NCBI GenBank assembly: GCA_047967505.1
Contig: CM106538.1
DNA from: Dipteris shenzhenensis
Taxonomy: Eukaryota
Strand: one strand, 5' to 3'
DNA length: 64,000 bases
Shown: piece after piece, positions 1,759 through 29,276 of the stretch
Layout of the letters: every line of letters starts with the position of its first letter
How positions within the stretch are numbered: position 1 is the first letter of the stretch
Translations under genes and position numbers: made by a program
Notes under the pieces: generated by a model
What the model was told of the DNA's origin: nothing
The model's database searches: none
Seen by the model: the letters and a program-made list of their open reading frames with translations, nothing else

Positions 1759-4422
1759 TCACTCCTTGATGATGCCATGCTTCACAACCGCCTCTTTTCC
1801 ATACTCATCACCCTCATCAGAATAAAGAATATTGTCCTCAATTATTGTGTATGGCCTTGTGATTTCTAACATGTGCTCAAATCCATCAAACCCATCATGT
1901 GAGCTGACAAATGACAAAAAACAGAAGGTCTCAGACAAACCCTTTTGTGCTTTATCCGATTCATGGATAACACCCACAAACCTTCTATGCCAAAATCGAG
2001 CCTCTATCATTGCTTCCTTGAGATTTACCATCTCTGTCATTGTCATAAATGATAGCAATACATACTGTGACGGAGTGGCAACGGTCTCCATCAAGCCACA
2101 GAGCAACTTCTTAAAGGCAGCCTTATCCCAACACATGCCTTTGGCAGATCCCTCTGAGGTGTCAAGCACACACAAGCTGATTGGAAGTTGTCCCTTGGAG
2201 TGACGTGTTAGAAAGCTCTCCCCCTCCATCTCCATGTTCACTTGAATAATTGTCCAAGGAAAACAAGACTGCGATGTAGACTTGTTACCCTCTATTGAAC
2301 TAATCACCCAATCAACATAGATTGATGCGGCTTTTGGGAAATCAGGTGTGGACTTGCCAACTTGCAGCTTCTCTTTGACCCATGACTCACATGAACCCTT
2401 GAAGCTCTGATAAACAATTGAATCAATTTTGAAGTAAGTTGCAAGGGCATCCCATGTTTGATGTTGGGGCGAAGGGTGACGTGAGTTGAACTCCTTGATG
2501 AGCGCTTCTTTCAGGGCTCTATCATGCTTAATCTCCATTGCCCGTTGAGACATTTCAATGGAGTCCTTGTCTTTGCTTGACTTGACCAAGACTATTTCTT
2601 TAGACTCAATCTCTACTTGAAGTGCACGTACATCTTCGTCTTCCAATCCTAGCAAACACCTCATATATGTTATTGTGGGATTTCGACCCTCAAGATCACC
2701 CTGCTTCACCAATGTCAAAATCCTAATCCATTGTTCGTAGATGTCATCATCATATGTGACCATGTGTGTGTCCTTGGTAGCAAAGTTTGCGCCCATCGAT
2801 ACGCTTGCAACTCCTACAAAATTCTATATAAAAAAATCAAAATCATCTTAGACATTCTTCTAATCCAAATCATGTAATAGAGATAATAATGACACTAGTG
2901 CGATTCTCCCATTACCATGTCAAAAGGATGACTTGGTAACTAGAAGAATGGCACTAGTGCCATTCTCACATCAGGGAATTGACACTACTATCATTTCTTT
3001 TACAAAGCCATGAACATTCTTGAAATAAAAAATGCATACAAAACAAAGTTTATTACTTACATCCCAACTTTGTCGATCTTTATGCCCTTTGACAAGGCCT
3101 TGGGCTGGTTTCTTTGGTCGTCCGAATGCAATCCACTGTGCCCTTAGGTGTTGTAAGATATCGATATATGGTTGATTTTTCAAAATGGTCTGTGCCTCCA
3201 TGTTGGCCATTGATGATATCTTACAACTTGCTTCAACTGGTGCATTGACAACAATTCTCGCCTTCCTCCGTGTATAGAAACCTTTTCGTTGATTGAAGGC
3301 TTCTCCATGTGCTTTAGTTATAAATATCCTTGCAGCATAAATCGAATGCTGCCCTGCGAGAATCCAATAATTATACTCCTTTAACTTTTCCACCTTTATC
3401 TCTTCCTTGCACATCGGAGTATTTGTGCCTATGTGGTAAGGCATAAGATATGCACATGTTGCAGGAGGTCGTGCATTCATTGCAAAACTCTTGACCAAGT
3501 CACTGACACAGCTGAGGGTCAACGTCCTGTACACATATTGGCTTGGTGCTCTAAAGCAATTCATCACTGGGATCAACACCTCAAACTCCAAACCAAATGG
3601 GAAGTACTCTACGTACTCCATCAAGCCTGTCATACTTGTGTCCTTCCTTTCCAATTTCTTTTGTAGTGCCTTAAAGTCAACATCTGGCTGGATTTTCTTA
3701 TACAAGATGATAGTTGCTTCAGATGATTTCTCACCATGTCCTGTTATATGTGTCTCACCACTCCCCGTTGCATCACCTCCACTTCCAATTCCATCAGTGA
3801 CTATTCCCGTACCTCCCTGTTTTCCTCCTAAAGTTGTCTCTTTGTCTTTAGCATCCAGTTTATCCCCAATGCTTGTTTTTCCATCTGACCTTATTTCCTT
3901 CTCACCTATTGTTTCCTCCTCACCGGTCTCTCTAGCCTTCTCTTTCAATGTGTTCTGAGACACTTGAGAGCTTGATCCAACAACATCACTTTTCTTGGTT
4001 CTTTTCGAAACTTTTCTACTCTTTTTTATATCTTGCTTTATCCCTTTTGTTACCAAATCAAAGCTTTCTAATATTTGTTGGTTGGTATAATTTTCTGGCT
4101 CATTAATCCAACCCCTAGATATCATCGTGTCCTCCCCAGTAGCATTCATCCTCGCATGATCAAAACAAGTAGGATCCAATTGATACACATTGCCTCCCAA
4201 TGTATGAATTTCGAGACAAGGAACATTGTCTTTCTCGGTATCCTCCATCTCTTGAACTTGTCCAACATCTTCAAAAGTTTTTCCTTGGATGTTCACAAAA
4301 CAATGCACTTTATGAAGTTTTTGGAGTTCGTTATTGTATATATCCAAAAACCATCCTCTTCCAGAACTAACTCCATCATAAACTGACACCTCTCGAACCT
4401 TTCTCTTTCCCTTGCTAGCCAT
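1759..4422 (-). CDS. Two-exon uncharacterised protein (~808 aa) with a ParB/Srx-like N-terminal/central domain and a degenerate amino-methyltransferase-like C-terminal domain; probably 3'-truncated
   Basis: Exon 1 is 4422-3061 and ends QSWD|gtaagt. Intron 3060-2824 ends tatag. Exon 2 is 2823-1759 and continues in phase 0 as NFVGVASVSMGANF. There are no internal stops. Motif YWILAGQHSIYAA is preceded by YVYRTL and followed by RKARIV. The stop codon coincides with the copia LTR junction. Confidence 0.7.
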
Positions 4423-4599
4423 TCTTGCAATGTTCTGTTAACAAAAGAACCAAGGACACAATGAAATGTATAATAGAAAATCATAACTGTAGTAGGGAAT
4501 ATTACAACCACAATGCAACTTCTATTAACAAAATAACCAAGGAGAAGCAACTTATATATGCATTATGAAAAACTACACCAACAAAGCAAGCAAATATAC

Positions 4600-7500
4600 A
4601 CAATATCAATCTCCACATAGATTGACACAATTCCATATGATCTCTACACAGCGGAGACAGTGAACACTACATAGAAGAATGCACATGTGAGTTTAGCATT
4701 CCTTGTGCATGTTTTCAGGTCATGGTATGAGATTGGCACCACTGCCATTCTCCACTGGTGGCATTCTCCACAGAGATTGACACAGGCTTCTCAATGCCAT
4801 TTCTTAGGGCCTAATAAGAGATTGGCACCACTACCATTCTCCACTTGTACAGATGTTTACCCTACTATTCTAGGAGGGGTATTCCAATGATCATAGGAGA
4901 GTGGTGTCTGATTCCAATCCACATGTGAGCGGAGACAGTGATCACTACATAGAAGAATGCACATGTGAGTTTAGGCTTCTCAATGCCATTTCTTAGGGCC
5001 AGCATGAGTTTGGCATCACTGCCATTCTGCGCTAGTGAATATCTAGCCAAACTAAACCTATAGATTGACATTCCACTAATTTTATTGGTCGGAGTAGGAT
5101 AATGGCAAAAGTGGCAATGCACATGTGAGTTTAGGATTCCTTGTGCATGTTTTCAGGTCATGGTATGAGATTGGCACCGCTGCCATTCTCCACTGGTGGC
5201 ATTCTCCACAGAGATTGACACAATTCTATATGATCTCTACACAGTGGAGACAGTGATCACTACACAGTGGAGACAGTGATCACTACATAGAAGAATGCAC
5301 ATTACCACTAGCGAAGAATGGCAGTGGGATAATGGCAAAAGTGCCAATGCACATGTGAGCTTAGGATTCCTTGTGCCAATGCACATGTGAGTTTAGGCTT
5401 CCCAATGCCATTTCTTAGGGCCTAATAAGAGATTGGCACCACTGCCATTCTCCACTTGTACAAATGTTTACCCTACTATTCTAAGTTTAGGCTTCACAAT
5501 GCCATTGTCTAGGGCCCAATAAGAGATTGGCACCACTGCCAATCTCCGCTTGTACAAATGTTTACCCTAATATTCTGAGAGGGGTATTCCAAGGATCATA
5601 GGATAATGGTGCCCGATTCCAATCCACATGTGAGTTTGAGGATCTCAGTGTCATTATGTAGTTATTTGCATGAGATTGGCATCACTTCCATTTTCCACTG
5701 GTGGCAGTCTAGATAAACTAAACTTGTATATTGACATTCCACAAATTTTATTGGTTGTAGTAGTATAATTGCAAAAGTGCCAATGCACATGTGAGTTTAG
5801 GATTCCTTGTGCCATTTTTAAGGTCTTGGTATGCTACCATTCTCCACTGGTGGCATTCTCCACAGAGATTGACATTCCAAGGCCTAATTTGACACAATTC
5901 CATATGATCTCTACACAACGGAGACAGTGATCACTACATAGAAGAATGCACATGTGAGTTTAGGCTTCTCAATGCCATTTATTAGGGCCTAATAAGAGAT
6001 TGGCACCACTGCCATTCTCCACTTGTACAAATGTCTACCCTACTATTCTAGGAGGGGTATTCCAGTGATCATAGGAGAGTGGTGTCCTATTCCATTCCAC
6101 ATGTGAGTGATGATGATCTCAGAGATTGACACAATTCCATATGATCTCTACACAGTGGAGACAGTCATCACTCCATAGAAGAATGCACATGTGAGTTTAG
6201 GATTCCTTGTGCATGTTTTCAGGTCATGGTATGAGATTGGCACCACTGCCATTCTCCACTGGTTGCATTCTCCACAGACATTGACATAATTCCATATGAT
6301 CTCTACACAGTGGAGACAAGGATCACTACATAGAAGAATGCAAAGGTGAGTTTAGGCTTCTCAATGCCATTTCTTAGGGCCTAACAAGAGATTGGCACCA
6401 CTGCCATTCTCCACTTGTACAAATGTTTACCCTACTATTCTAAGAGGGGTATTCCAGTGATCATAGGAGAGTGGTGTCCTATTCCATTCCACATGTGAGT
6501 TTGATGATCTCAGTGTCATAGTGTAGTTGCAAGCATGAGATTGGCATCACTGCCATTCTCCGCTAGTGGTAATCTAGACAAACTGAACCTATAGATTGAC
6601 ATTCCACTACATTGAAGGATGCACATTACCACTAGCGGAGAATGGCAGTAGGATAATGGCAAAAGTGCCAATGGACATGTGAGTTTAGGATTCCTTGTGC
6701 ATGTTTTCAGGTCATGGTATGAGATTGGCACCACTGCCATTCTCCACTGGTGGCATTCTCCACAGAGATTGGCACAAATCCATATGATCTCTACACAGCG
6801 GAGAGAGTGATCACTACATAGAAGAATGCACATTACCACTAGCGGAGAATGGCAGTAGGATAATGGCAAAAGTGCCAATGCACATGTGAGTTTAGGATTC
6901 CTTGTGCATGTTTTCAGGTCATGGTATGAGATTGGCACCACTGCCATTCTCCACTGGTGGCATTCTCCACAGAGATTGGCACAATTCCATATGATCTCTA
7001 CACATGTGAGTTTAGCCTTCTCAATGACATTTCTTAGGGCCTAATAAGAGATTGGCACCACTGCCATTCTTCACTTGTACAAATGTTTACCCTACTATAC
7101 TAGGAGGGGTATTCCAGTGATCATAGGAGAGTGGTGTCCGATTCCAATCCACATGTGAGTTTGATGAACTCAGAGATTGACACAATTCCATATGATCTCT
7201 ACACAGCGGAGACAGTGATCTCTACATAGAAGAATGCACATGTGAGTTTAGGATTCCTTGTGCATGTTTGCAGGTCATGGTATGAGATTGGCACCAGTAC
7301 CATTCTCCACTGTTGGCATTCTCCACAGAGATTAACATAATTCCATATGATCTCTACACAGCGGAGACAGTGACCACTACATAGAAGAATGCACATGTGA
7401 GTTTAGGCTTCTCAATGCCATTTCTTAGGGCCTAATAAGAGATTGGCACCACTACCATTCTCTTGTACAAATGTTTACCCTACTATTCTAGGAGGGGTAT

Positions 7501-10500
7501 TCCAATGATCATAGAAGACTGGTGTCCAATTCCAATCCACATGTGAGTTTGATGATCTCAGTATCATTATGTAGGTGCCACCATGAGTTTGGCATCATTG
7601 CCATTCTCCACTAGTGGTTGTCTAGACAAACTAAACCTATAGATTGACATTCCAAGGCCTAATAAGAGATTGACACAATTCCATATGATCTCTACACAGC
7701 GGAGACAGTGATCACTACATAGAAGAATGCACATGTGAGTTTAGGCTTCTCAATGCCATTTATTAGGGCCTAATAAGAGATTGGCACCAATGCCATTCTC
7801 CACTTGTACAAATGTCTACCCTACTATTCTAGGAGGGGTATTCTAGTGATCATAGGAGAGTGGTGTCCTATTCCATTCCACATGTGAGTGATGATGATCT
7901 CAGAGATTGACACAATTCCTCCACAATTCCATATGATATCTACACAGTGGAGACAGTCATCACTCCATAGAAGAATGCACATGTGAGTTTAGGATTCCTT
8001 GTGCATGTTTTCAGGTCATGGTATGAGATTGGCACCACTGCCATTCTCCACTGGTGGCATTCTCCACAGACATTGACACAATTCCATATGATCTCTACAC
8101 AGCGGAGACAAGGATCACTACATAGAAGAATGCACATGTGAGTTTAGGCTTCTGAATGCCATTTCTTAGGGCCTAACAAGAGATTGGCACCATTGCCATT
8201 CTCCACTTGTACAAATGTTTACCCTACTATTCTAGGAGGGGTATTCCAGTGATCATAGGAGAGTGGTGTCCTATTCCATTGCACATGTGAGTGATGATGA
8301 TCTCAGAGATTGACACAATTCCATTTGATCTCTACATAGCGGAGACAGTCATCACTCCATAGAAGAATGCACATGTGAGTTTAGGATTCCTTGTGCATGT
8401 TTTCAGGTCATGGTATGAGATTGGCACCACTGCCATTCTCCACTGGTGGCATTCTCCACAGAGATTGACACAATTCCATATGATCTCTACACAGCGGAGA
8501 CAGTGATCACTACATAGAAGAATGCACATGTGAGTTTAGGCTTCTCAATGCCATTTCTTAGGGCCTAATAAGAGATTGGCACCACTGCCATTCTCCACTT
8601 ATACAAATGTTTACCCTACTATTCTAGGAGGGGTATTCCAGTGATCATAGGAGAGTGGTGTCCTATTCCATTCCACATGTGAGTGATGATGATCTCAGAG
8701 ATTGACACAATTCCATATGATCTCTACATAGTGGAGACAGTCATCACTCCATAGAAGAATGCACATGTGAGTTTAGGATTCCTTGTGCATGTTTTCAGGT
8801 CATGGTATGAGATTGGCACCACTGCCATTCTCCACTGGTGACATTCTCCACATAGATTGACACAATTCCATATGATCTCTGTACATGTGAGTTTAGGCTT
8901 CTCAATGCCATTTCTTAGGGCCTAATAAGAGATTGGCACCACGGCCATTCTCCAATTGTACAAATGTTTAGCCTACTATTCTAGGAGGGGTATTCTAATG
9001 ATCATAGCAGAGTGGTGTCCTATTCCATTCTACATGTGAGTTTGATGATCTCAGTGTCATCATGTAGTTGCAAGCATGAGATTGGCACCACTGCCATTCT
9101 CTGCTAGTAGTAGTCTAGACAGACTGAACCTATAGATTGACATTCCACTAATTTTATTGGCTGCAGTAGGATAATGGCAAAAGTGCCAATGCACATGTGA
9201 TTTTAGGATTCCTTGTGCATGTTATCAGGTCATGGTATGAGATTGGCACCACTGCCATTCTCAACTGGTGGCATTCTCCAAAGAGATTGACACAATTCCA
9301 TATGATCTCTACACAGCGGAGACAGTGATGACTACATAGAAGGATGCACATGTGATTTTAGGCTTCTCAATGCCATTTCTTAGGCCCTAATAAGAGATTG
9401 GCACCACTGCCATTCTCCACTTGCACAAATGTTTACCCTACTATTCTAGGAGGGGTATTCCAATCATCATAGGAGAGTGGTGTCCGATTCCAACCCACAT
9501 GTGAGTCTGATGATCTCAGTGTCATTATGTAGGTGCCACCATGAGTTTGGCATCACTGCCATTTTCCACTACTGGTTGTCTAGACAAACTAAACCTATAG
9601 ATTGACATTCCACTACATAGAAGAATGCACATTACCACTAGCGGAGAATGGCAGTAGGATAATGGCAAAGTGCCAATGCACATGTGAGATTAGCACCACT
9701 GCCATTCTCCACTGGTGGCATTCTCCACATAGATTGACACAATTCCATGTGATCTCTGCACATGTGAATTTAGGCTTCTCAATGCCATTTCTTAGGGCCT
9801 AATAAGAGACTGGCACCACTGCCATTCTCCACTTGTACAAATGTTTACCCTACTATTCCAGGAGGGGTATTCCAGTGATCATAGGAGAGTGGTGTCCTAT
9901 TCCATTCCACATGTGAGTTTGATGATCTTAGTGTCATAATGTAGTTGCAAGCATGAGATTGGCATCACTGCCATTCTCCGCTAGTGGTAATCTAGACAAA
10001 CTGAACCTATAGATTGACATTCCACTACATTGAAGGATGCACATTACCACTAGCGGAGAATGGCAGTAGAATAATGGCAAAAGTGCCAATGCACATGTGA
10101 GTTTAGGATTCCTTGTGCATGTTTTCAGGTCATGGTATGAGATTGGCACCACTGCCATTCTCCACTGGTGGCATTCTCCACAGAGATTGGCACAAATCCA
10201 TATGATCTCTACATAGCAGAGAGAGTGATCACTACATAGAAGAATGCACATTACCACTAGTGGAGAATGGCAGTAGGATAATGGCAAAAGTGCCAATGCA
10301 CATGTGAGTTTAGGATTCCTTGTGCATGTTTTCAGGTCATGGTATGAGATTGGCACCACTGCCATTCTCCACTGGTGGCATTCTCCACAGAGATTGGCAC
10401 AATTCCATATGATCTCTGCACAGCGGAGAGAGTGATCATTACATAGAAGAATGCACATTACCACTAGCGGAGAATGGCAATAGGATAATGGCAAAAGTGC

Positions 10501-10960
10501 CAATGCACATGTGAGTTTAGGATTCCTTGTGCATGTTTTCAGGTCATGGTATGAGATTGGCACCACTACCATTCTCCACTGATGGCATTCTCCACAGAGA
10601 TTGGCACAATTCCATATGATCTCTGCACATGTGAGTTTGATGGTCTTAGTGTCATTATGCATTTGCTAGCATGAGATTGGCATCACTGCCATTCTCCACT
10701 AGTGGTAATCTAGACAAACTAAACCTGTAGGTTGACATTGGACACTATATTTATTGGCTCTAGTAGGATTATTTATTGGCTGTAGTGTGAGTTTGATGAT
10801 CTCATTGTCATTATGTAGTTGCCAGCGTGAGATTGGCATCACTGCCATTCTCCATTAGTGGTAGTGCCAATGCACATGTGAGTTTAGGATTCCTTGTGCA
10901 TGTGAGTTTAGGCTTCTCAATGACATTTCTTAGGGCCTAATAAGAGATTGGCACCACTAT
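4600..10960. repeat. Modular tandem repeat (satellite) of about 5 shuffled 60-160-bp modules, with local periods of ~207 bp and ~380 bp
   Basis: Dozens of copies of GAGATTGGCACCACTGCCATTCTCCAC, GCACATGTGAGTTTAG, GAGATTGACACAATTCCATATGATCTCTACAC and TACTATTCTAGGAGGGGTATTCC. The 69-aa periodicity of ORF 9934-10662 reflects the 207-bp unit. Confidence 0.97.
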
Positions 10961-11310
10961 TCTAGGAGGGGTATTCCATTGTGAATCCAAAATTTTGAAT
11001 TAGGACATTCCATTGGGAGAATGGCACTAGTGCCATTCTCCATTTCCCAATGGGAGAATGGCACTAGTACCAATTTTGAATTAGGACATTCCATTGTGAA
11101 TCCAAAATTTTGAATTAGGACATTCCATTGGGAGAATGGCACTAGTGCCATTCTCCATTTTCCAATGGGAGAATGGTACTTGTACAAATTTTGAATTAGG
11201 ACATTCCATTGTGAATCCAAAATTTGGAATTAGGACATTCCATTGGGATAATGGCACTAGTGCCATTCTCCATTTTCCAATGGGAGAATGGCACTAGTGC
11301 CAGTCTCCAT
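10961..11310. repeat. Palindrome-rich terminal sub-array of the satellite
   Basis: Repeats of TTTGAATTAGGACATTCCATTG alternate with the perfect 26-bp palindrome GGAGAATGGCACTAGTGCCATTCTCC (11016-11041, and again near 11131). Confidence 0.9.
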
Positions 11311-23791: not shown

Positions 23792-26700
23792 TGTTGAGAT
23801 ATCAAGCTCTACCCCCGATATATCTCCTGGATGACTATCATTTATGTCACCGCCTATGTTAGTTGTAATCGTGGTGTAGTTAGACTACCACGTATGTTTT
23901 TGGTTTGGGTTCACATATGAACCACGTATTCTAGGGTTTGACATATAGGGTATTTCCCTCTTCTATTGTATTGCTGTTGTGTGCAAAAGTGAAGAAAGGC
24001 TTCACCCTCCAACCTTGTGTCCTCTCTCTTTTGTGTGTTGTGAAGAAAGCTGAACTTGAGTCTCCTATCTCTCTCCCTTATTCTTTACATGGTATCAGAG
24101 CCTTGTTCGTGGTAAGAAGCTCAAGAAAGCAAGCCAAGTTTGTGGTGTCCTGGTAAGAGGACCAGTGTAGCTTTCCTATTTCGAGTTTGGGAGCAAATCT
24201 CTGCAGGTAGCATAGCCAGAAGTGCAGGAGTGCACTGTTTCAGATTGAGAGGCCCTTCGCGGTGTGGCGAGAGCGCAGTATATGCTACGGGCGAGGGCAA
24301 AGCCCTTGGTGACTTTATTTTTTTGATTTGAGGCCGTTTCGGAGCCCGTTTTGAAGGCGGAAGTTCTTCGCAGGCACTCAGAAAAAGGCCCTGTTTTTGC
24401 TGTGCGACCACCGCGCGGCTAGTCGGTGGAAAGGTGCCACAGAAATTGCATCGTATGCATGTGTGCAGAGATATTGGGACTTGCAGATTCATGCCTATTT
24501 CCTGTTGATGCAAAATCATCACTAGGAAGTGACTGTGTGGTGAAATACCACTTTCGTCAGTGTTGCAGATCTGCCCCTGTGAGGCTTTTTGTAGAAGTTT
24601 TGCTATTTGCCCTTGTGAGGCATTTGCTGTGTTTACAGGTTGGTGTTGCAATTCGTGATTTGTAAAATGTCTGAGAATCTGTCTACCATTGTCAGTGAGA
24701 AGCTTGACAAGAACAACTTCCAAGCATGGAAGTTCAGGATGACAAACTTCCTTATGGGAAAGGGAGTTTGGGATTACATCAGTGGTGAAACTGCAGAACC
24801 AGTTTTGGGTGCTGCTCCCACTCCTGCTGAATTGAAGGCCTTTAAAGAATGGCATGAAAAAGCCAGAAAATGCTTGTATTGGCTGTCTGTTAGCATTTCA
24901 GATTCTATCATTGTGCATATACAGGATGTAGAGACGCCTAAGGAGGCATGGGATACATTGGTGAAGCTGTATAGCACAAATACCAAAGCACGAAAGATGC
25001 AGCTAAAGCAGGAATTGCACAATGTGCAAAGGAAAAATCTGAATATAAATGAGTATTCCTTGAAGGTGAAAGGCCTTGCAGATTCTCTTGCCTCCATTGG
25101 AGCACCTGTTGATGATGAGGACTTAGTGTCCGTGACCTTGAACGGTCTTGGGAAAGATTATGCACAGTTTCGGACATCCATTGGAGTCCGTGAAACATTT
25201 CCTGATTTTCAGGAACTTATTGCTCTCTTGCTGAGTGAAGAGCAAAGGAATGGTGGTTCAGCCACCTCAACTTCTCAAGAGACTGCTTTCTACTCGAATA
25301 CAGGTAGAGGCAGAGGTAGAGGAAGAGGCCGTTTTGGTGGCCGTGCAGGAAATCAGAACCAACAGCAACAACAGGAAAACCAGTCCTATGGAGGAGGACG
25401 TGGTAGTTCTAGAGGCAAGGGGAGCCAAAGAGGCCGTGGTTCATGGCAAAGGAACCAGCAAGTAAATAGCAGCACAGAATGCTATTATTGTGGAAAGCCT
25501 GGACACAAGGAGAATACATGCTATAAAAAGCAGAATGACATCAAAAGTGGGAAGTTGCAGCAAAGCAACTATGCATCATCAAGTGGGCATGGTGACGATA
25601 GAAATGAGCACCTTTTTGTGATGCAGCATATGGTTAACTCCATGTCAGGAGATGATGCAGCTTGCAATGATGTTTGGTATGTTGATTCAGGTGCCTCTAA
25701 CCACATGACCAGTCATGGTGAGTGGTTTCATGATGTTAGAAATTTGGATAAGCCAGGTTATGTTGAAACAGGTGATGATACTGCGCACCCAATTACGCAG
25801 GTTGGTAAAGTGCCATTGGCTATGCAGGATGGCAAAACGAAGTACTTGGCAGATGTACTTCATGTTCCAAAAATCACTAAGAACCTGGTTTCAGTAGGCC
25901 AGATGGTTGAGCAAGGTCTGCAGGTTAGATTTAATCCTGATGGATGCTTTGTTGAGGACTTGAAAAATAAGTGCCGCTTGGTTGCGAAAGGCAACAAAAA
26001 TGGCAGAATGTTCACCTTGGATGTTGATATGCCTGAAGTGAAAGCTACTATGTTTGCGCATGGGAGAGGTGTCATTGCAGATATTGAGATATGGCACAAG
26101 CGCATTGGGCACGTGAATATACAAAGGCTGAAATCTATGCAAACGAAAAACATTGTTGCAGGTTTGCCTAAATTCAGAGTTGAGGGAATGCAAAAGGTAT
26201 GTGAAGCATGCCAAATGGGTAAGCAGGCCAGACATGCATTTCCCAAAAATGCTAAGGTGAGCAGAAGACCTTTGGAAGTGATCCATTCAGATGTTTGGAC
26301 AACCAAAGCTGCTTCTATTGGTGGATGCCATTATTATGTGACGTTTATTGATGACTACACTAGGAAGGTGTGGATTTATTTTATGAAGCACAAAAGTGAA
26401 GTGTTCAGCCATTTCAAGGCTTTTAAGGCCATGGTTGAAAAAGAGAAAGGTGTGCATATTAAAGTGCTAAGATCTGATGGAGGGGGAGAGTACTTTTCAG
26501 AAGAATTTTGTGAATATCTGAAAGAACAGGGAATTCAAAGGAAGTACTCATGCAGGTCTACCCCTCAGCAGAATGGGGTTGCAGAAAGGAAGAACAGGCA
26601 TATTGCAGAAGTAGGACGGGCGATCCTAAATGAGAAAAACATGCCTGATTACTTTTGGGCTGAAGCAGTAGCAACTGCTGTTTATATTATGAACAGAACC

Positions 26701-29276
26701 CCCACTGCAGCTGTCCATGGCATGACGCCTGAAGAAATGTATACAGGCCAAAAACCAGATATTTCTCACTTGAAGGTATTTGGTTGCATAGCTTATGTTC
26801 ATGTTCCTGATGAGAAGAGAACAAAGCTGGATCCAAAGGCAGAAAAATGCATCTTTATTGGATATGCTCTGCACCAGAAAGGGTATCGCTGTTATAACCC
26901 TTCCACCCGCAAAATGCAAGTGAGCAGAGATGTTGTTTTTGATGAAATGAGCAGCTGGTATGCACCAACTGTTATGGTAGGAGATGCAGATGCAGGAAAT
27001 GGGAATGCTGCAATAAATCCAGAGCAGCAATCTCAAGCCTTGAGTGGACCCAGAGAGTCCTCTACTAGTGGATCTAATGCATGGACAGGGAGATTGAATC
27101 TAGTGAATCGTCACATGGCAGTCCTGATAGTGTTGTGCAGGTATCACATAAGGGAAAAGAAAAAGTGTACCATGATCCAGTGTTTGATGTGTCTGCTGGT
27201 AGCTCTCATGTTGATGGAGAGTCAAGTGGCTCTGAAATGAGCCTTGATGAGGAACTTGGGATTCCTTCTGTTGTTACACCTGGTGCAAGGAAAAGCAGGC
27301 ATGATTTAAAGACTCCTGCAACTGATCCAGTTGTACGGAGGTCCACTCGTATTAAGTATCCAGTTGACAGGCTGAGATATGATGGGTATACAGCACATCA
27401 CTATGCTTATATGGTCAAGGTTCTAGAGGAGCCAGAGCCCACATGTTTTGAGGATGCAGCAGGGCATAAAAATTGGGAAGCAGCTATGGATGAAGAGATG
27501 GCTGCCTTGGATGCAAACCACACTTGGGATTTGATGCCTTTGCCTCATGATAAGAAGGCTATTGGCTGCAAGTGGGTTTACAAAGTAAAGCACAATGCTG
27601 ATGGGTCTGTTAGCAGGTATAAGGCAAGATTGGTTGCCAAAGGTTTTGCACAGACATATGGAATTGACTATGAGGAAACTTTCAGCCCAGTTGCAAGGAT
27701 GGCAACCGTGAGAGCAGTAATTGCTATGGCTGCTGCAAAGGGATGGTCTTTGCATCAGATGGATGTGAAAAATGCCTTCTTGCATGGTGATTTGCAGGAA
27801 GAGGTTTATATGATGCAGCCAGAAGGTTATGAGGATAATTCACACCCCGATTTTGTATGCAGGTTGCGCAAAGCCTTGTATGGCTTAAAACAGGCGCCGA
27901 GGGCATGGTCAGACAAGATAGGGCAATATCTTGTCACTATTGGATTTCAGATTTCCAATTCAGATTTTTCACTTTATGTGAAAAGGACAAACAGAGGGAT
28001 TGTGCTTATAGTCATCTATGTTGATGACTTGATTATTACAGGTGATAGTGATGCAGACATTAATGACGTGAAGCTGCTGTTGAAGCAGAAATTTGAGATG
28101 AAGGATTTGGGAGAGCTACGTTACTTCTTGGGCATTGAGGTTATTAGATCCCCGAGTGGGATATGGCTGTTGCAAAGGCAATACGGTTTGGACATGCTGT
28201 CCAAATATGGGATGACAGGCTGTAAGCCTATCTCTGTTCCATTGGAGCAGAATGTGAAGCTCAATGCAGAGACAGGTGAGCTTCTTGAAGATATTACTAT
28301 GTACAGGTGCATAGTAGGTAGCTTGATTTACATGACTATAACCAGACCAGATTTGAGCTATGCTGTGGGGCTGGTGAGTCAGTTTATGCAGGCACCAAGG
28401 AAGCCACATTTGGATGCGGCTAGATGCATACTGCGGTATGTGAAGTCCACATTGCATTATGGACTGTTTTATGAAGCTGGGTGTGCATTACAGGTACATG
28501 GATACACAGATGCTGACTGGGCTGGTAGTGTCTCAGACAGGAGATCTACTAGTGGTTTTATGTTTTCTCTTGGGAGTGGTGCCATCAGTTGGAGCAGCAA
28601 GAAGCAGCCAACAGTTGCCTTGTCGAGCACAGAGGCTGAGTACAGGGGTGCAGCAATGGCTGCATGTGAGGTAGCTTGGTTACGGAAGCTACTTGCAGAT
28701 ATGGGACAGTCAGTTCATGCAGCAGTTGTCATTCATTGTGACAACATTAGCAGCATCATGCTTGCTAATAACCCAGTTTATCATGCTAGAACGAAGCACA
28801 TTGAGGTGCATTATCACTTTGTGAGAGAGAAGGTTCTAGCTGGTGAGATTGATCTTGTCTATGTCAGCACTGAGGAGCAGGTGGCTGATATTTTTATGAA
28901 GGCATTGGGTACCGAGAAGCTTCGCAGATTTAGGAGCTTGCTTGGTGTACGTGAGATGGATTTGAGCTTGAGGGGGAGTGTTGAGATATCAAGCTCTACC
29001 CCCGATATATCTCCTGGATGACTATCATTTATGTCACCGCCTATGTTAGTTGTAATCGTGGTGTAGTTAGACTACCACGTATGTTTTTGGTTTGGGTTCA
29101 CATATGAACCACGTATTCTAGGGTTTGACATATAGGGTATTTCCCTCTTCTATTGTATTGCTGTTGTGTGCAAAAGTGAAGAAAGGCTTCACCCTCCAAC
29201 CTTGTGTCCTCTCTCTTTTGTGTGTTGTGAAGAAAGCTGAACTTGAGTCTCCTATCTCTCTCCCTTATTCTTTACA
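23792..29276 (+). mobile_element. Young full-length Ty1/copia LTR retrotransposon
   Basis: 298-bp TG...CA LTRs at 23792-24089 and 28979-29276 that look identical by eye. TSD CATGT at 23787-23791 and 29277-29281. PBS TGGTATCAGAGC at 24090. PPT GAGGGGGAG just before 28979. Confidence 0.98.
24667..29021 (+). CDS. Copia gag-pol polyprotein with one frameshift near 27090-27100
   Basis: Likely start MSENLSTIVSEKLDKNNF. Knuckle CYYCGKPGHKENTC, protease WYVDSGASNHMT, integrase RSDGGGEY/PQQNGVAER, RT IYVDD and RNase H YTDADWAG. ORFs 24640-27240 and 27081-29021 overlap in different frames. Confidence 0.93.

Follow-up and report, generated by a model that had tools for sequence, protein, structure and literature searches.

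The gene on the minus strand at positions 1762-4422 of a 64,000-nt stretch of Dipteris shenzhenensis DNA (contig CM106538.1 of assembly GCA_047967505.1; the whole stretch is called the window here) appears to be a copy, truncated by a copia retrotransposon and probably dead, of an unnamed multicopy protein family. The predicted protein combines a ParB/sulfiredoxin (Srx)-like fold with a beta-class N6/N4 methyltransferase-like fold, both without their catalytic residues, and probably has a non-catalytic, DNA-binding role. We put the probability of this reading as a whole at roughly 0.75.

The gene is built from two stop-free minus-strand frames, 2971-4437 and 1759-2823, found in the open reading frame listing and its translations. 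Exon 1 (3061-4422, 454 codons, start Met at 4422) and exon 2 (1762-2823, 354 codons) add up to 808 codons with no internal stop, confirming the frame of about 808 codons with one GT-AG intron that a previous inspection of the letters (the sequence-only reading) had proposed. The 237-nt segment between them (3060-2824) is a predicted phase-0 GT-AG intron, with junctions that read TGGGAT/GTAAGT at the donor and TTTTTTTATATAG/AATTTT at the acceptor, and a polypyrimidine stretch precedes the acceptor TATAG. Contigs of sequencing run X3, which was guessed to be RNA, were short; none spanned the intron, and they showed two non-canonical skips. Exon 1 encodes a conserved N-terminal domain (~4090-4422, residues 1-110), a low-complexity linker (~3720-4090) and the ParB/Srx-fold domain (~3172-3618), while exon 2 encodes a helical region (~2262-2823) and the first two-thirds of the methyltransferase-like fold (~1762-2262). 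The N-terminal domain aligns with fern proteins, and the motif string W-[YF]-x-D-x-[YH] ... F-E-D-V-G ... P-C ... Y-x-L-x-P is common to them. Every peptide quoted in the sequence-only reading was located on the minus strand: YVYRTL (3520-3537), YWILAGQHSIYAA (3331-3369), RKARIV (3250-3267) and MAN (3202-3210) in exon 1, and ISLCVLDTSEG (2149-2181), WDKAAFKKLL (2101-2130), YVLLSF (2047-2064), SETFCFLSF (1909-1935) and VKHGIIKE (1762-1785) in exon 2. Some 190 bp of unique sequence (4423-4610, minus strand) lies 5' of the gene before a repeat array begins, and it contains a TATA-like TATATAAG at 4551-4558, which we infer only from its letters to be a promoter element. No second copy of the gene was found by tblastn within the window.

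The window frame is more than a chance opening because it has many relatives, with aligned N-termini and a recurring intron. An exhaustive phmmer search with exon 2 returned 57 relatives at E ≤ 1e-3 (38 at ≤ 1e-10 and 9 at ≤ 1e-30), led by P0003 (E 4.6e-63, about 35-36% identical), and a profile of the exon 1 domain added 16 more; single-sequence word-index searches with exon 1 found no relatives, and a metagenome scan with exon 2 gave no match. Three annotated proteins, P0048, P0012 and P0060, hold both exon-type halves in one chain, and their N-termini align with the window Met. A complete paralog with three exons lies on a metagenome contig (L001), and two exons of another paralog are present in L002. 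In the window, L001 and L002 alike, the first intron is of phase 0 and GT-AG type and sits one codon past the same conserved Trp; its position is thus kept in 3/3 loci, at lengths of 237, 97 and 79 nt, respectively. Many fragments called from open reading frames stop just past this Trp, reading into the intron. We also observed a frame shift in L002 (~1820-1880), shortly before the end of exon 1, followed by a donor TGGGAT/GTAAGT identical to that of the window; an assembly error could explain this, or L002 could be a further pseudogene.

A quick tree resolved four deep clades that are 20-45% identical, with Adiantum members in three of them, and placed the window copy on a long branch as sister to the clade containing P0003 and P0005. 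P0012 and P0062 carry deletions. In the Adiantum gene model P0005, the methyltransferase-like domain runs into a retrotransposon RNase H fragment at residues 625-663 (Pfam 24.6 bits, below the cutoff), and this model is probably a chimeric annotation across a transposable element (TE) insertion. Of 20 members looked up, eight carry a name, and all eight are fern hypothetical proteins, seven from Adiantum nelumboides and one from Ceratopteris richardii. As far as the sequences tell, the family is multicopy and so far unnamed, and its only named members come from ferns. For the analyses below, an alignment of 53 sequences including fragments (A1) proved too gappy and was replaced by one of 12 exon 2-type sequences (A2); 20 exon 1-type members form a separate alignment (A5).

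An AlphaFold (AF2) model built from the window's own residues (3061-3720) with a 20-sequence alignment reached a best predicted local distance difference test (pLDDT) score of 75.1. When this model was compared with 48,161 representative chains by a method independent of Foldseek, 18 chains matched at Z ≥ 2. PadC headed the list (Z 8.8, root-mean-square deviation (rmsd) 3.5, 100 aligned residues), followed by KorB (8.3), SerK (7.9), Arabidopsis Srx (6.6), pNOB8 ParB-N (6.6) and SbnI (6.3), and the matches were confined to ParB/Srx-fold proteins. The best 24 Foldseek matches listed were likewise all ParB, Noc, PadC, KorB, Srx, SspE or SbnI proteins. On the strength of the predicted model, the exon 1 domain is a ParB/Srx fold. 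At the position of the ParB/Srx G-x-x-R (DGQHR-like) loop, to which the peptide at 3331-3369 corresponds, the family carries a conserved loop Y-x-Y-W-I-[IL]-[DSA]-G-[QL]-H-S, and the window reads A-G-Q-H-S, with Ser at the position of the Arg. This phosphate-binding Arg is present in 0/18 family proteins, being replaced by Ser in 17 and by Phe in one.

The window covers the methyltransferase-like fold only up to motif X, and the fold was modelled with AlphaFold from P0003 (12-sequence alignment, pLDDT 78.7, predicted TM-score 0.72). Foldseek with this model returned 39 matches in the PDB at E ≤ 1e-3 (CcrM at 2e-6), in a list headed by CcrM, M1.HpyAVI, TTHA0409, M.PvuII, rotifer N4CMT and M.RsrI. 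Re-alignment gave Z 15.0 for TTHA0409 (rmsd 3.4, 190 residues aligned, model residues 178-412) and 14.4 for CcrM. A wide search independent of Foldseek ranked beta-class N6/N4 enzymes in all of the top 11 places (Z 12.1-14.5), with MT-A70 proteins as a second tier (Z 7.9-10.1) and the next unrelated fold at no more than 6.4. In a viral structure library, 19 matches at E ≤ 1e-3 included a phage 'ParB/Sulfiredoxin' protein and N4/N6 methylases of phages and Pandoravirus. The model thus indicates that the C-terminal part of the exon 2 type is a beta-class N6/N4 methyltransferase fold. The motif order is also that of the beta class, motif IV standing before motifs X-I-II. The family profile aligned motifs X-I-II with those of M.RsrI (E 0.84, not significant alone), and hhalign placed the same motifs of Escherichia coli YhdJ in the same register (E 0.0019, probability 14%, 50 columns).

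The sequence-only reading had placed ISLCVLDTSEG where a catalytic DPPY would stand. In the P0003 model this position (E204-210) is indeed the end of strand 4, the place of motif IV, with the family pattern L-C-V-L-D-[TS]-[TS]-x-G; Asp is kept in 11/12 sequences, and Pro-Pro-Tyr is lost in all (0/12), so that the idea of a degenerate amino-methyltransferase domain holds. The (D/S)PPY motif of amino-methyltransferases positions the target amino group. It could still be argued that intact paralogs are active N6-adenine or N4-cytosine DNA methyltransferases with an unusual catalytic loop. Their fold is complete, the motif-I-like [DE]-x-[FY]-x-x-G, which matches D-x-F-x-G-x-G in part, occurs in 11/11 relatives, and one clade retains a motif-II-like Glu (L-V-E-N aligned to I-E-I-N). 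However, neither Pro-Pro-Tyr nor Pro-Pro-Phe follows the strand-4 Asp in any of the 12 sequences, and the motif X H-P-x-x-K-P is also absent from the segment aligned to M.RsrI and YhdJ, which makes active methylation very improbable.

Several results weigh against our interpretation of the two folds. Only two of the five ParB-domain models were confident (pLDDT 75.1, 73.4, 56.1, 40.5 and 40.5). Foldseek with the ParB-domain model gave no match at E ≤ 1e-3, ParB-type Pfam families (ParB_N, PF02195) at E ≤ 10 and NCBIfam each matched none of the 20 A5 members, and a PDB profile search with A5 returned only chance matches at E ≥ 0.38. On the exon 2 side, the methyltransferase model comes from a relative about 35% identical and not from the truncated window sequence, and Pfam N6_N4_Mtase (PF01555) at E ≤ 10 matched none of the 12 A2 members. 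Neither exon was recognised by Pfam or by PDB sequence search, the PDB profile searches reaching only E ≥ 0.25; because of this lack of sequence-level recognition, the case for both folds rests on predicted structures. In addition, since some relatives, those of the one clade, keep the motif-II-like Glu, residual binding of S-adenosylmethionine is possible in them. Two candidates from these searches were set aside, p38-gamma (to A5, E 0.38) as a chance match, and proteasome alpha-7 (to A2, E 0.25-0.29) likewise as chance, the match lying in an acidic tail. A weak Pfam match to DUF7025 (E 0.052) fell below the cutoff.

These gaps invite the objection that structure prediction has produced spurious fold matches and that the gene encodes an ordinary lineage-specific plant or TE protein with no relation to ParB or methyltransferases. 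The missing profile-level matches to ParB or methyltransferase families and the low confidence of 3/5 ParB-domain models speak for it, as does an embedding (Atlas) search in which exon 2 pointed to dynamin clusters at 0.90 with low recognition. On the other hand, both match lists are family-specific and well above background, two independent enzymes, M.RsrI and YhdJ, give one and the same register for motifs X-I-II, and the order of the domains equals a known prokaryotic architecture, as given in PMC12704722. We therefore regard an artefact as extremely improbable. Where the sequence-only reading had looked to profiles or structures for recognition of both domains, profiles yielded no match and structures matched for both; for the ParB region by itself, Foldseek gave nothing at E ≤ 1e-3, but the exhaustive comparison was specific to ParB/Srx folds.

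The 3' end of the gene coincides with a Ty1/copia remnant on the plus strand. Its pol region (1-1527) comprises the integrase C-terminal SH3-like domain, the start of the reverse transcriptase (RT) and an RNase H-like region, and a polypurine region with the 3' long terminal repeat (LTR) follows at 1528-1761, the start of the LTR being unmapped and its end reading ...CTCA at 1761. Pfam SH3_retrovirus matches 1-549 (E 1.7e-33), and 745-1527, which no tool matched, is presumably copia RNase H, as recognised by eye. The assignment to copia draws on this copia-type pol domain, and the 5' LTR lies outside the window. One contig of sequencing run X2 follows the window to 1761 and then reads ACTGGTATCAGAGCC / TGGTATCAGAGC, letters that we read as the tRNA-iMet primer-binding site, as follows a 5' LTR. 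Because the contig runs on from there into this presumed primer-binding site, 1761 is taken as the end of the LTR. The truncating element is itself defective, with its open reading frames 1-549, 530-790 and 745-1527 each in a different frame and the RT core missing between ~790 and 745. A second, much better preserved Ty1/copia element lies at 24619-29021 on the plus strand, with gag, protease and integrase in one 873-codon frame and RT in the next.

The terminal TGA of the gene (1761-1759) straddles the junction between gene and copia LTR. Down to 1760, one X2 contig and one X3 contig agree with the gene; beyond that point the two share a different sequence, which reads on in frame as C-I-R-C-Y-C-S-R-E-H and fits the family consensus just before motif I, C-I-x-x-Y-C-x-E-[DH]. 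Because other copies read on in this way past 1760, the stop appears to have been made by the copia insertion. The fit of the X2/X3 sequence also implies that the break point is correctly placed relative to motif I, where the sequence-only reading had seen the frame end. In line with that reading, [DE]-x-[FY]-x-x-G follows some 15 residues later in 11/11 relatives, and the continuation into a VLDxFxG-like motif that it foresaw in the family is found past the break in the intact relatives as V-[LI]-D-x-F-x-x-G. Motifs I-III and the NIF domain described below are missing from the window copy, which hence cannot form a complete fold; we count this copy as a pseudogene, probably dead. Compared with contigs of three sequencing runs, 27 listed coding differences divide into 11 synonymous and 16 not, where the synonymous share of sites is 21% and a further 14 coding differences lie outside the 27 listed; at the sequence level this is weak evidence for purifying selection among copies. 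One X2 contig has an 11-nt insertion behind 2684 that would frameshift exon 2 in that copy.

Intact members extend beyond the methyltransferase fold. From N to C terminus they consist of the N-terminal domain, the ParB/Srx fold, the helical region, the beta-class methyltransferase fold, an acidic linker and an NIF/FCP1-type HAD domain. Pfam NIF (PF03031, FCP1/SCP-type phosphatase) matches P0009, P0060, P0007 and P0048 with E values from 5.8e-17 to 1.4e-8 (62.3, 61.9, 55 and 35 bits, respectively; cutoff 21.8), and exon 3 of L001, whose NIF-bearing region spans 5060-6115, with 62.2 bits (E 6.2e-17); a PDB phmmer search with this exon gave no match at E ≤ 1e-3. The domain is absent from the window copy owing to the truncation and is known from relatives only. 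The catalytic signature of NIF/FCP1 enzymes, D-x-D-x-(T/V), stands at the start of the domain, where L001, P0009 and P0060 read L-D-L-N-G and P0007 and P0008 read L-S-L-C-G. Because the first motif is D-L-N or S-L-C instead of D-x-D, this third enzyme-like domain also looks degenerate.

As to how such a family could have arisen and what it might do, it may descend from a prokaryotic or viral ParB-methyltransferase fusion that was later turned into a spliced eukaryotic gene. Its protein would act as a sequence-specific DNA binder without catalysis, not as a methylase, and the NIF domain could serve as its effector part. The prokaryotic derivation proposed in the sequence-only reading agrees with the architecture and the ranking of the folds, but no donor was found at the sequence level. 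Its suggestion that the gene is borne by a transposon fared less well; the family is multicopy and the setting rich in TEs, but nothing else supports carriage, which was not borne out. The searches that tell against a prokaryotic or viral source were those of the exon 1 profile against viral and prokaryotic genome collections and of P0036 by tblastn against phages, neither of which found a relative, and of PHROGs, with nothing below E 0.019.

Candidate targets of such a binder lie beside the gene. In 3/3 loci with DNA, arrays of a 14-bp palindrome, TGGC[AC]-N4-[GT]GCCA, occur 200-500 bp upstream of the start codon. The window carries a 6.6-kb satellite-like array at 4734-11302 (units of ~115, 155, 207 and 392 bp) with 41 exact palindromes of the TGGCA-N4-TGCCA type, and one copy lies in the intron of the gene (2944-2967). 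The pattern TGGCM-N4-KGCCA has 42 exact matches in the window against 0.41 expected, all within 2949-11302 (1 in the intron, 41 in the array). L001 has four matches at 88-386 (region 84-392), with the ATG at ~582, and one more in intron 2 (3629-3898), and L002 has four at 173-405 (region 141-433), upstream of its gene. When all palindromes with 5-nt arms and spacers of 2-6 were counted, the top recurrent non-simple arm at spacer 4 was TGGCA or TGGCC in each locus. By blastn, the three loci showed no DNA similarity to one another. A Ty3/gypsy element on the minus strand (11257-16482; gag, protease, RT, RNase H and integrase zinc finger) breaks off within its integrase exactly where the palindrome array begins.

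Judged from the letters of these loci, the palindrome arrays may be cognate binding sites of the family protein, and if the family binds DNA at all, these arrays and the intronic copies would be its likeliest targets. The co-occurrence of array and gene suggests either cognate sites or subterminal repeats of a mobile unit. The points that speak against cognate sites are that the palindrome pattern was written after the loci had been seen, that it comes from three loci only, and that contigs represent the window array more heavily than the gene (X1 contig depth 100-155 versus 13-20, depths that we do not take as copy numbers). Because of this abundance, the window array could be an independent satellite.

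It follows that the arrays might belong to an unrelated satellite, or to a family of miniature inverted-repeat transposable elements, that adjoins the genes by chance, the protein having other targets or none. We give this view nearly even odds. Besides the contig depths and the post hoc definition of the pattern, it can call on the size of the window array, whose 6.6 kb far exceed any regulatory need. It has more difficulty with the presence of arrays in 3/3 loci in an equivalent position with respect to the start codon, with the constancy of the arm TGGCN and the spacer of 4 in DNA that is otherwise unalignable, with the fact that 0 of the 42 window matches fall in the other ~53 kb, and with the intronic copies in two of the three loci (window and L001).

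Alternatively, gene and palindrome array could be parts of a DNA transposon or another mobile unit, with the arrays as its subterminal repeats and the protein as a passenger that has an accessory or anti-silencing role. Points in favour are that the family is multicopy, that its gene models are often broken or fused (the RNase H fragment of P0005, the deletions of P0012 and P0062), that the surroundings are rich in TEs in both the window and L001, that the array abuts a gypsy integrase cut at that very point, and that the palindromes vary between paralogs as transposase sites do. Yet neither the window (1762-11302) nor L001 (7.6 kb) has a transposase, recombinase or helicase beside the gene, and neither terminal repeats nor a target-site duplication were found, the long-range inverted pairs of L001 being only 21-26 nt at 73-90%. 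Moreover, deep paralog clades (20-45% identity) and conserved introns fit an old gene family better than a recent amplification. A mobile unit of this kind is, in our view, on the unlikely side.

A bolder version of the DNA-binding reading is that ferns harbour a eukaryotic ParB/parS-like module, in which a triple pseudoenzyme recognises palindrome arrays beside and inside its own gene, the two co-diversifying as a self-recognising unit. Such a unit would be either selfish or chromatin-nucleating, and its NIF domain would deliver the output to a target such as the RNA polymerase II C-terminal domain. We consider this quite unlikely as it stands. If the arrays do prove to be binding sites, the family would make an amenable example of how a plant genome has put a DNA-recognition module from bacteria to new use, and it could account for a share of the repeat arrays that very large fern genomes contain. 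In either case, the value lies in the family rather than in the pseudogene locus of the window.

Literature searches, which did not extend to subscription-only papers or bioRxiv supplements, turned up no description of a ParB-methyltransferase family in ferns. The family is not described in the accessible portions of PMC12704722, of PMC4738411 (Iyer et al. 2016, on eukaryotic adenine methyltransferases), of PMC9156397 or of a 2026 preprint (10.64898/2026.05.21.726589), and the last of these reports that methyltransferase-bearing retrotransposons are absent from Streptophyta.

Among known systems, the exon 1 domain resembles in its loop the DGQHR/DndB branch, of which D-G-Q-H-R is the signature. 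Nine of 18 fern proteins read D-G-Q-H-S, one residue away. BrxU, SspE and a DndBCDE-DndI entry, representing the DUF262 (GmrSD, BrxU) and Dnd branches, appear in the structural list at Z of only 2.4-3.7. In contrast to both the DGQHR/DndB and DUF262 groups, however, the Arg is missing in 18/18 fern proteins, and there is no NCBIfam match. In an embedding search with exon 1, the nearest named clusters were those of fungal DUF3723, a conserved cargo of Starship elements (score 0.95, 10 matches). PMC9156397 lists its function as unknown and describes it as homologous to bacterial chromosome segregation genes. Pfam DUF3723 (PF12520) at E ≤ 10 matched no member scanned, and the link to the fern family is a lead only. 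According to PMC12704722, which surveyed the ParB-CTPase fold in 2025, the fold is known in eukaryotes almost only as sulfiredoxin.

The methyltransferase-like domain resembles TTHA0409, CcrM, M.RsrI, M1.HpyAVI, M.MboIIA and M.PvuII in fold (Z 12.3-15.0 over ~190-214 residues) and shares with beta-class enzymes the circular order in which motif IV comes first and motifs X-I-II last, whereas the fern proteins are only 9-12% identical to them and have neither the catalytic PPY nor the motif X H-P-x-x-K-P. METTL14 and MTA9, catalytically dead partners, offer an analogy for how a methyltransferase fold could be kept for nucleic-acid binding or scaffolding, although the fern domain is structurally nearer to the prokaryotic beta class than to MT-A70, and no active partner subunit came to light. 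In eukaryotes, beta-class DNA methyltransferases of prokaryotic type are uncommon; bdelloid rotifer N4CMT (PDB 8s9m/n/o) is one, and the fern domain matches it at Z 12.3-12.7. The rotifer enzyme is active and carries a fused chromodomain, as stated in PMC8885841 and PMC10406627. The fern family differs from it in lacking the catalytic motif and in being fused to ParB-like and NIF domains.

The closest parallel in architecture is the fusion of ParB_N with N6_N4_Mtase, described from phages, prophages and plasmids in the same 2025 survey (PMC12704722), in which a ParB/Srx fold likewise precedes a beta-class methyltransferase fold. Consistent with this, the BFVD entry A0A6J5MMM5, 'ParB/Sulfiredoxin [uncultured Caudovirales phage]', was among the best viral structural matches (E 2e-6). 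Unlike the phage and plasmid fusions, the fern family is spliced and eukaryotic, falls outside both Pfam models and is without the ParB Arg and the (D/S)PPY; it also has an extra N-terminal domain, a long helical insert and, in intact members, a C-terminal NIF domain. Because Pfam does not see the family, domain-based surveys would miss it. What is new here is the ParB-methyltransferase architecture established as a spliced, multicopy gene family in ferns, where it looks to have been remodelled into a triple pseudoenzyme.

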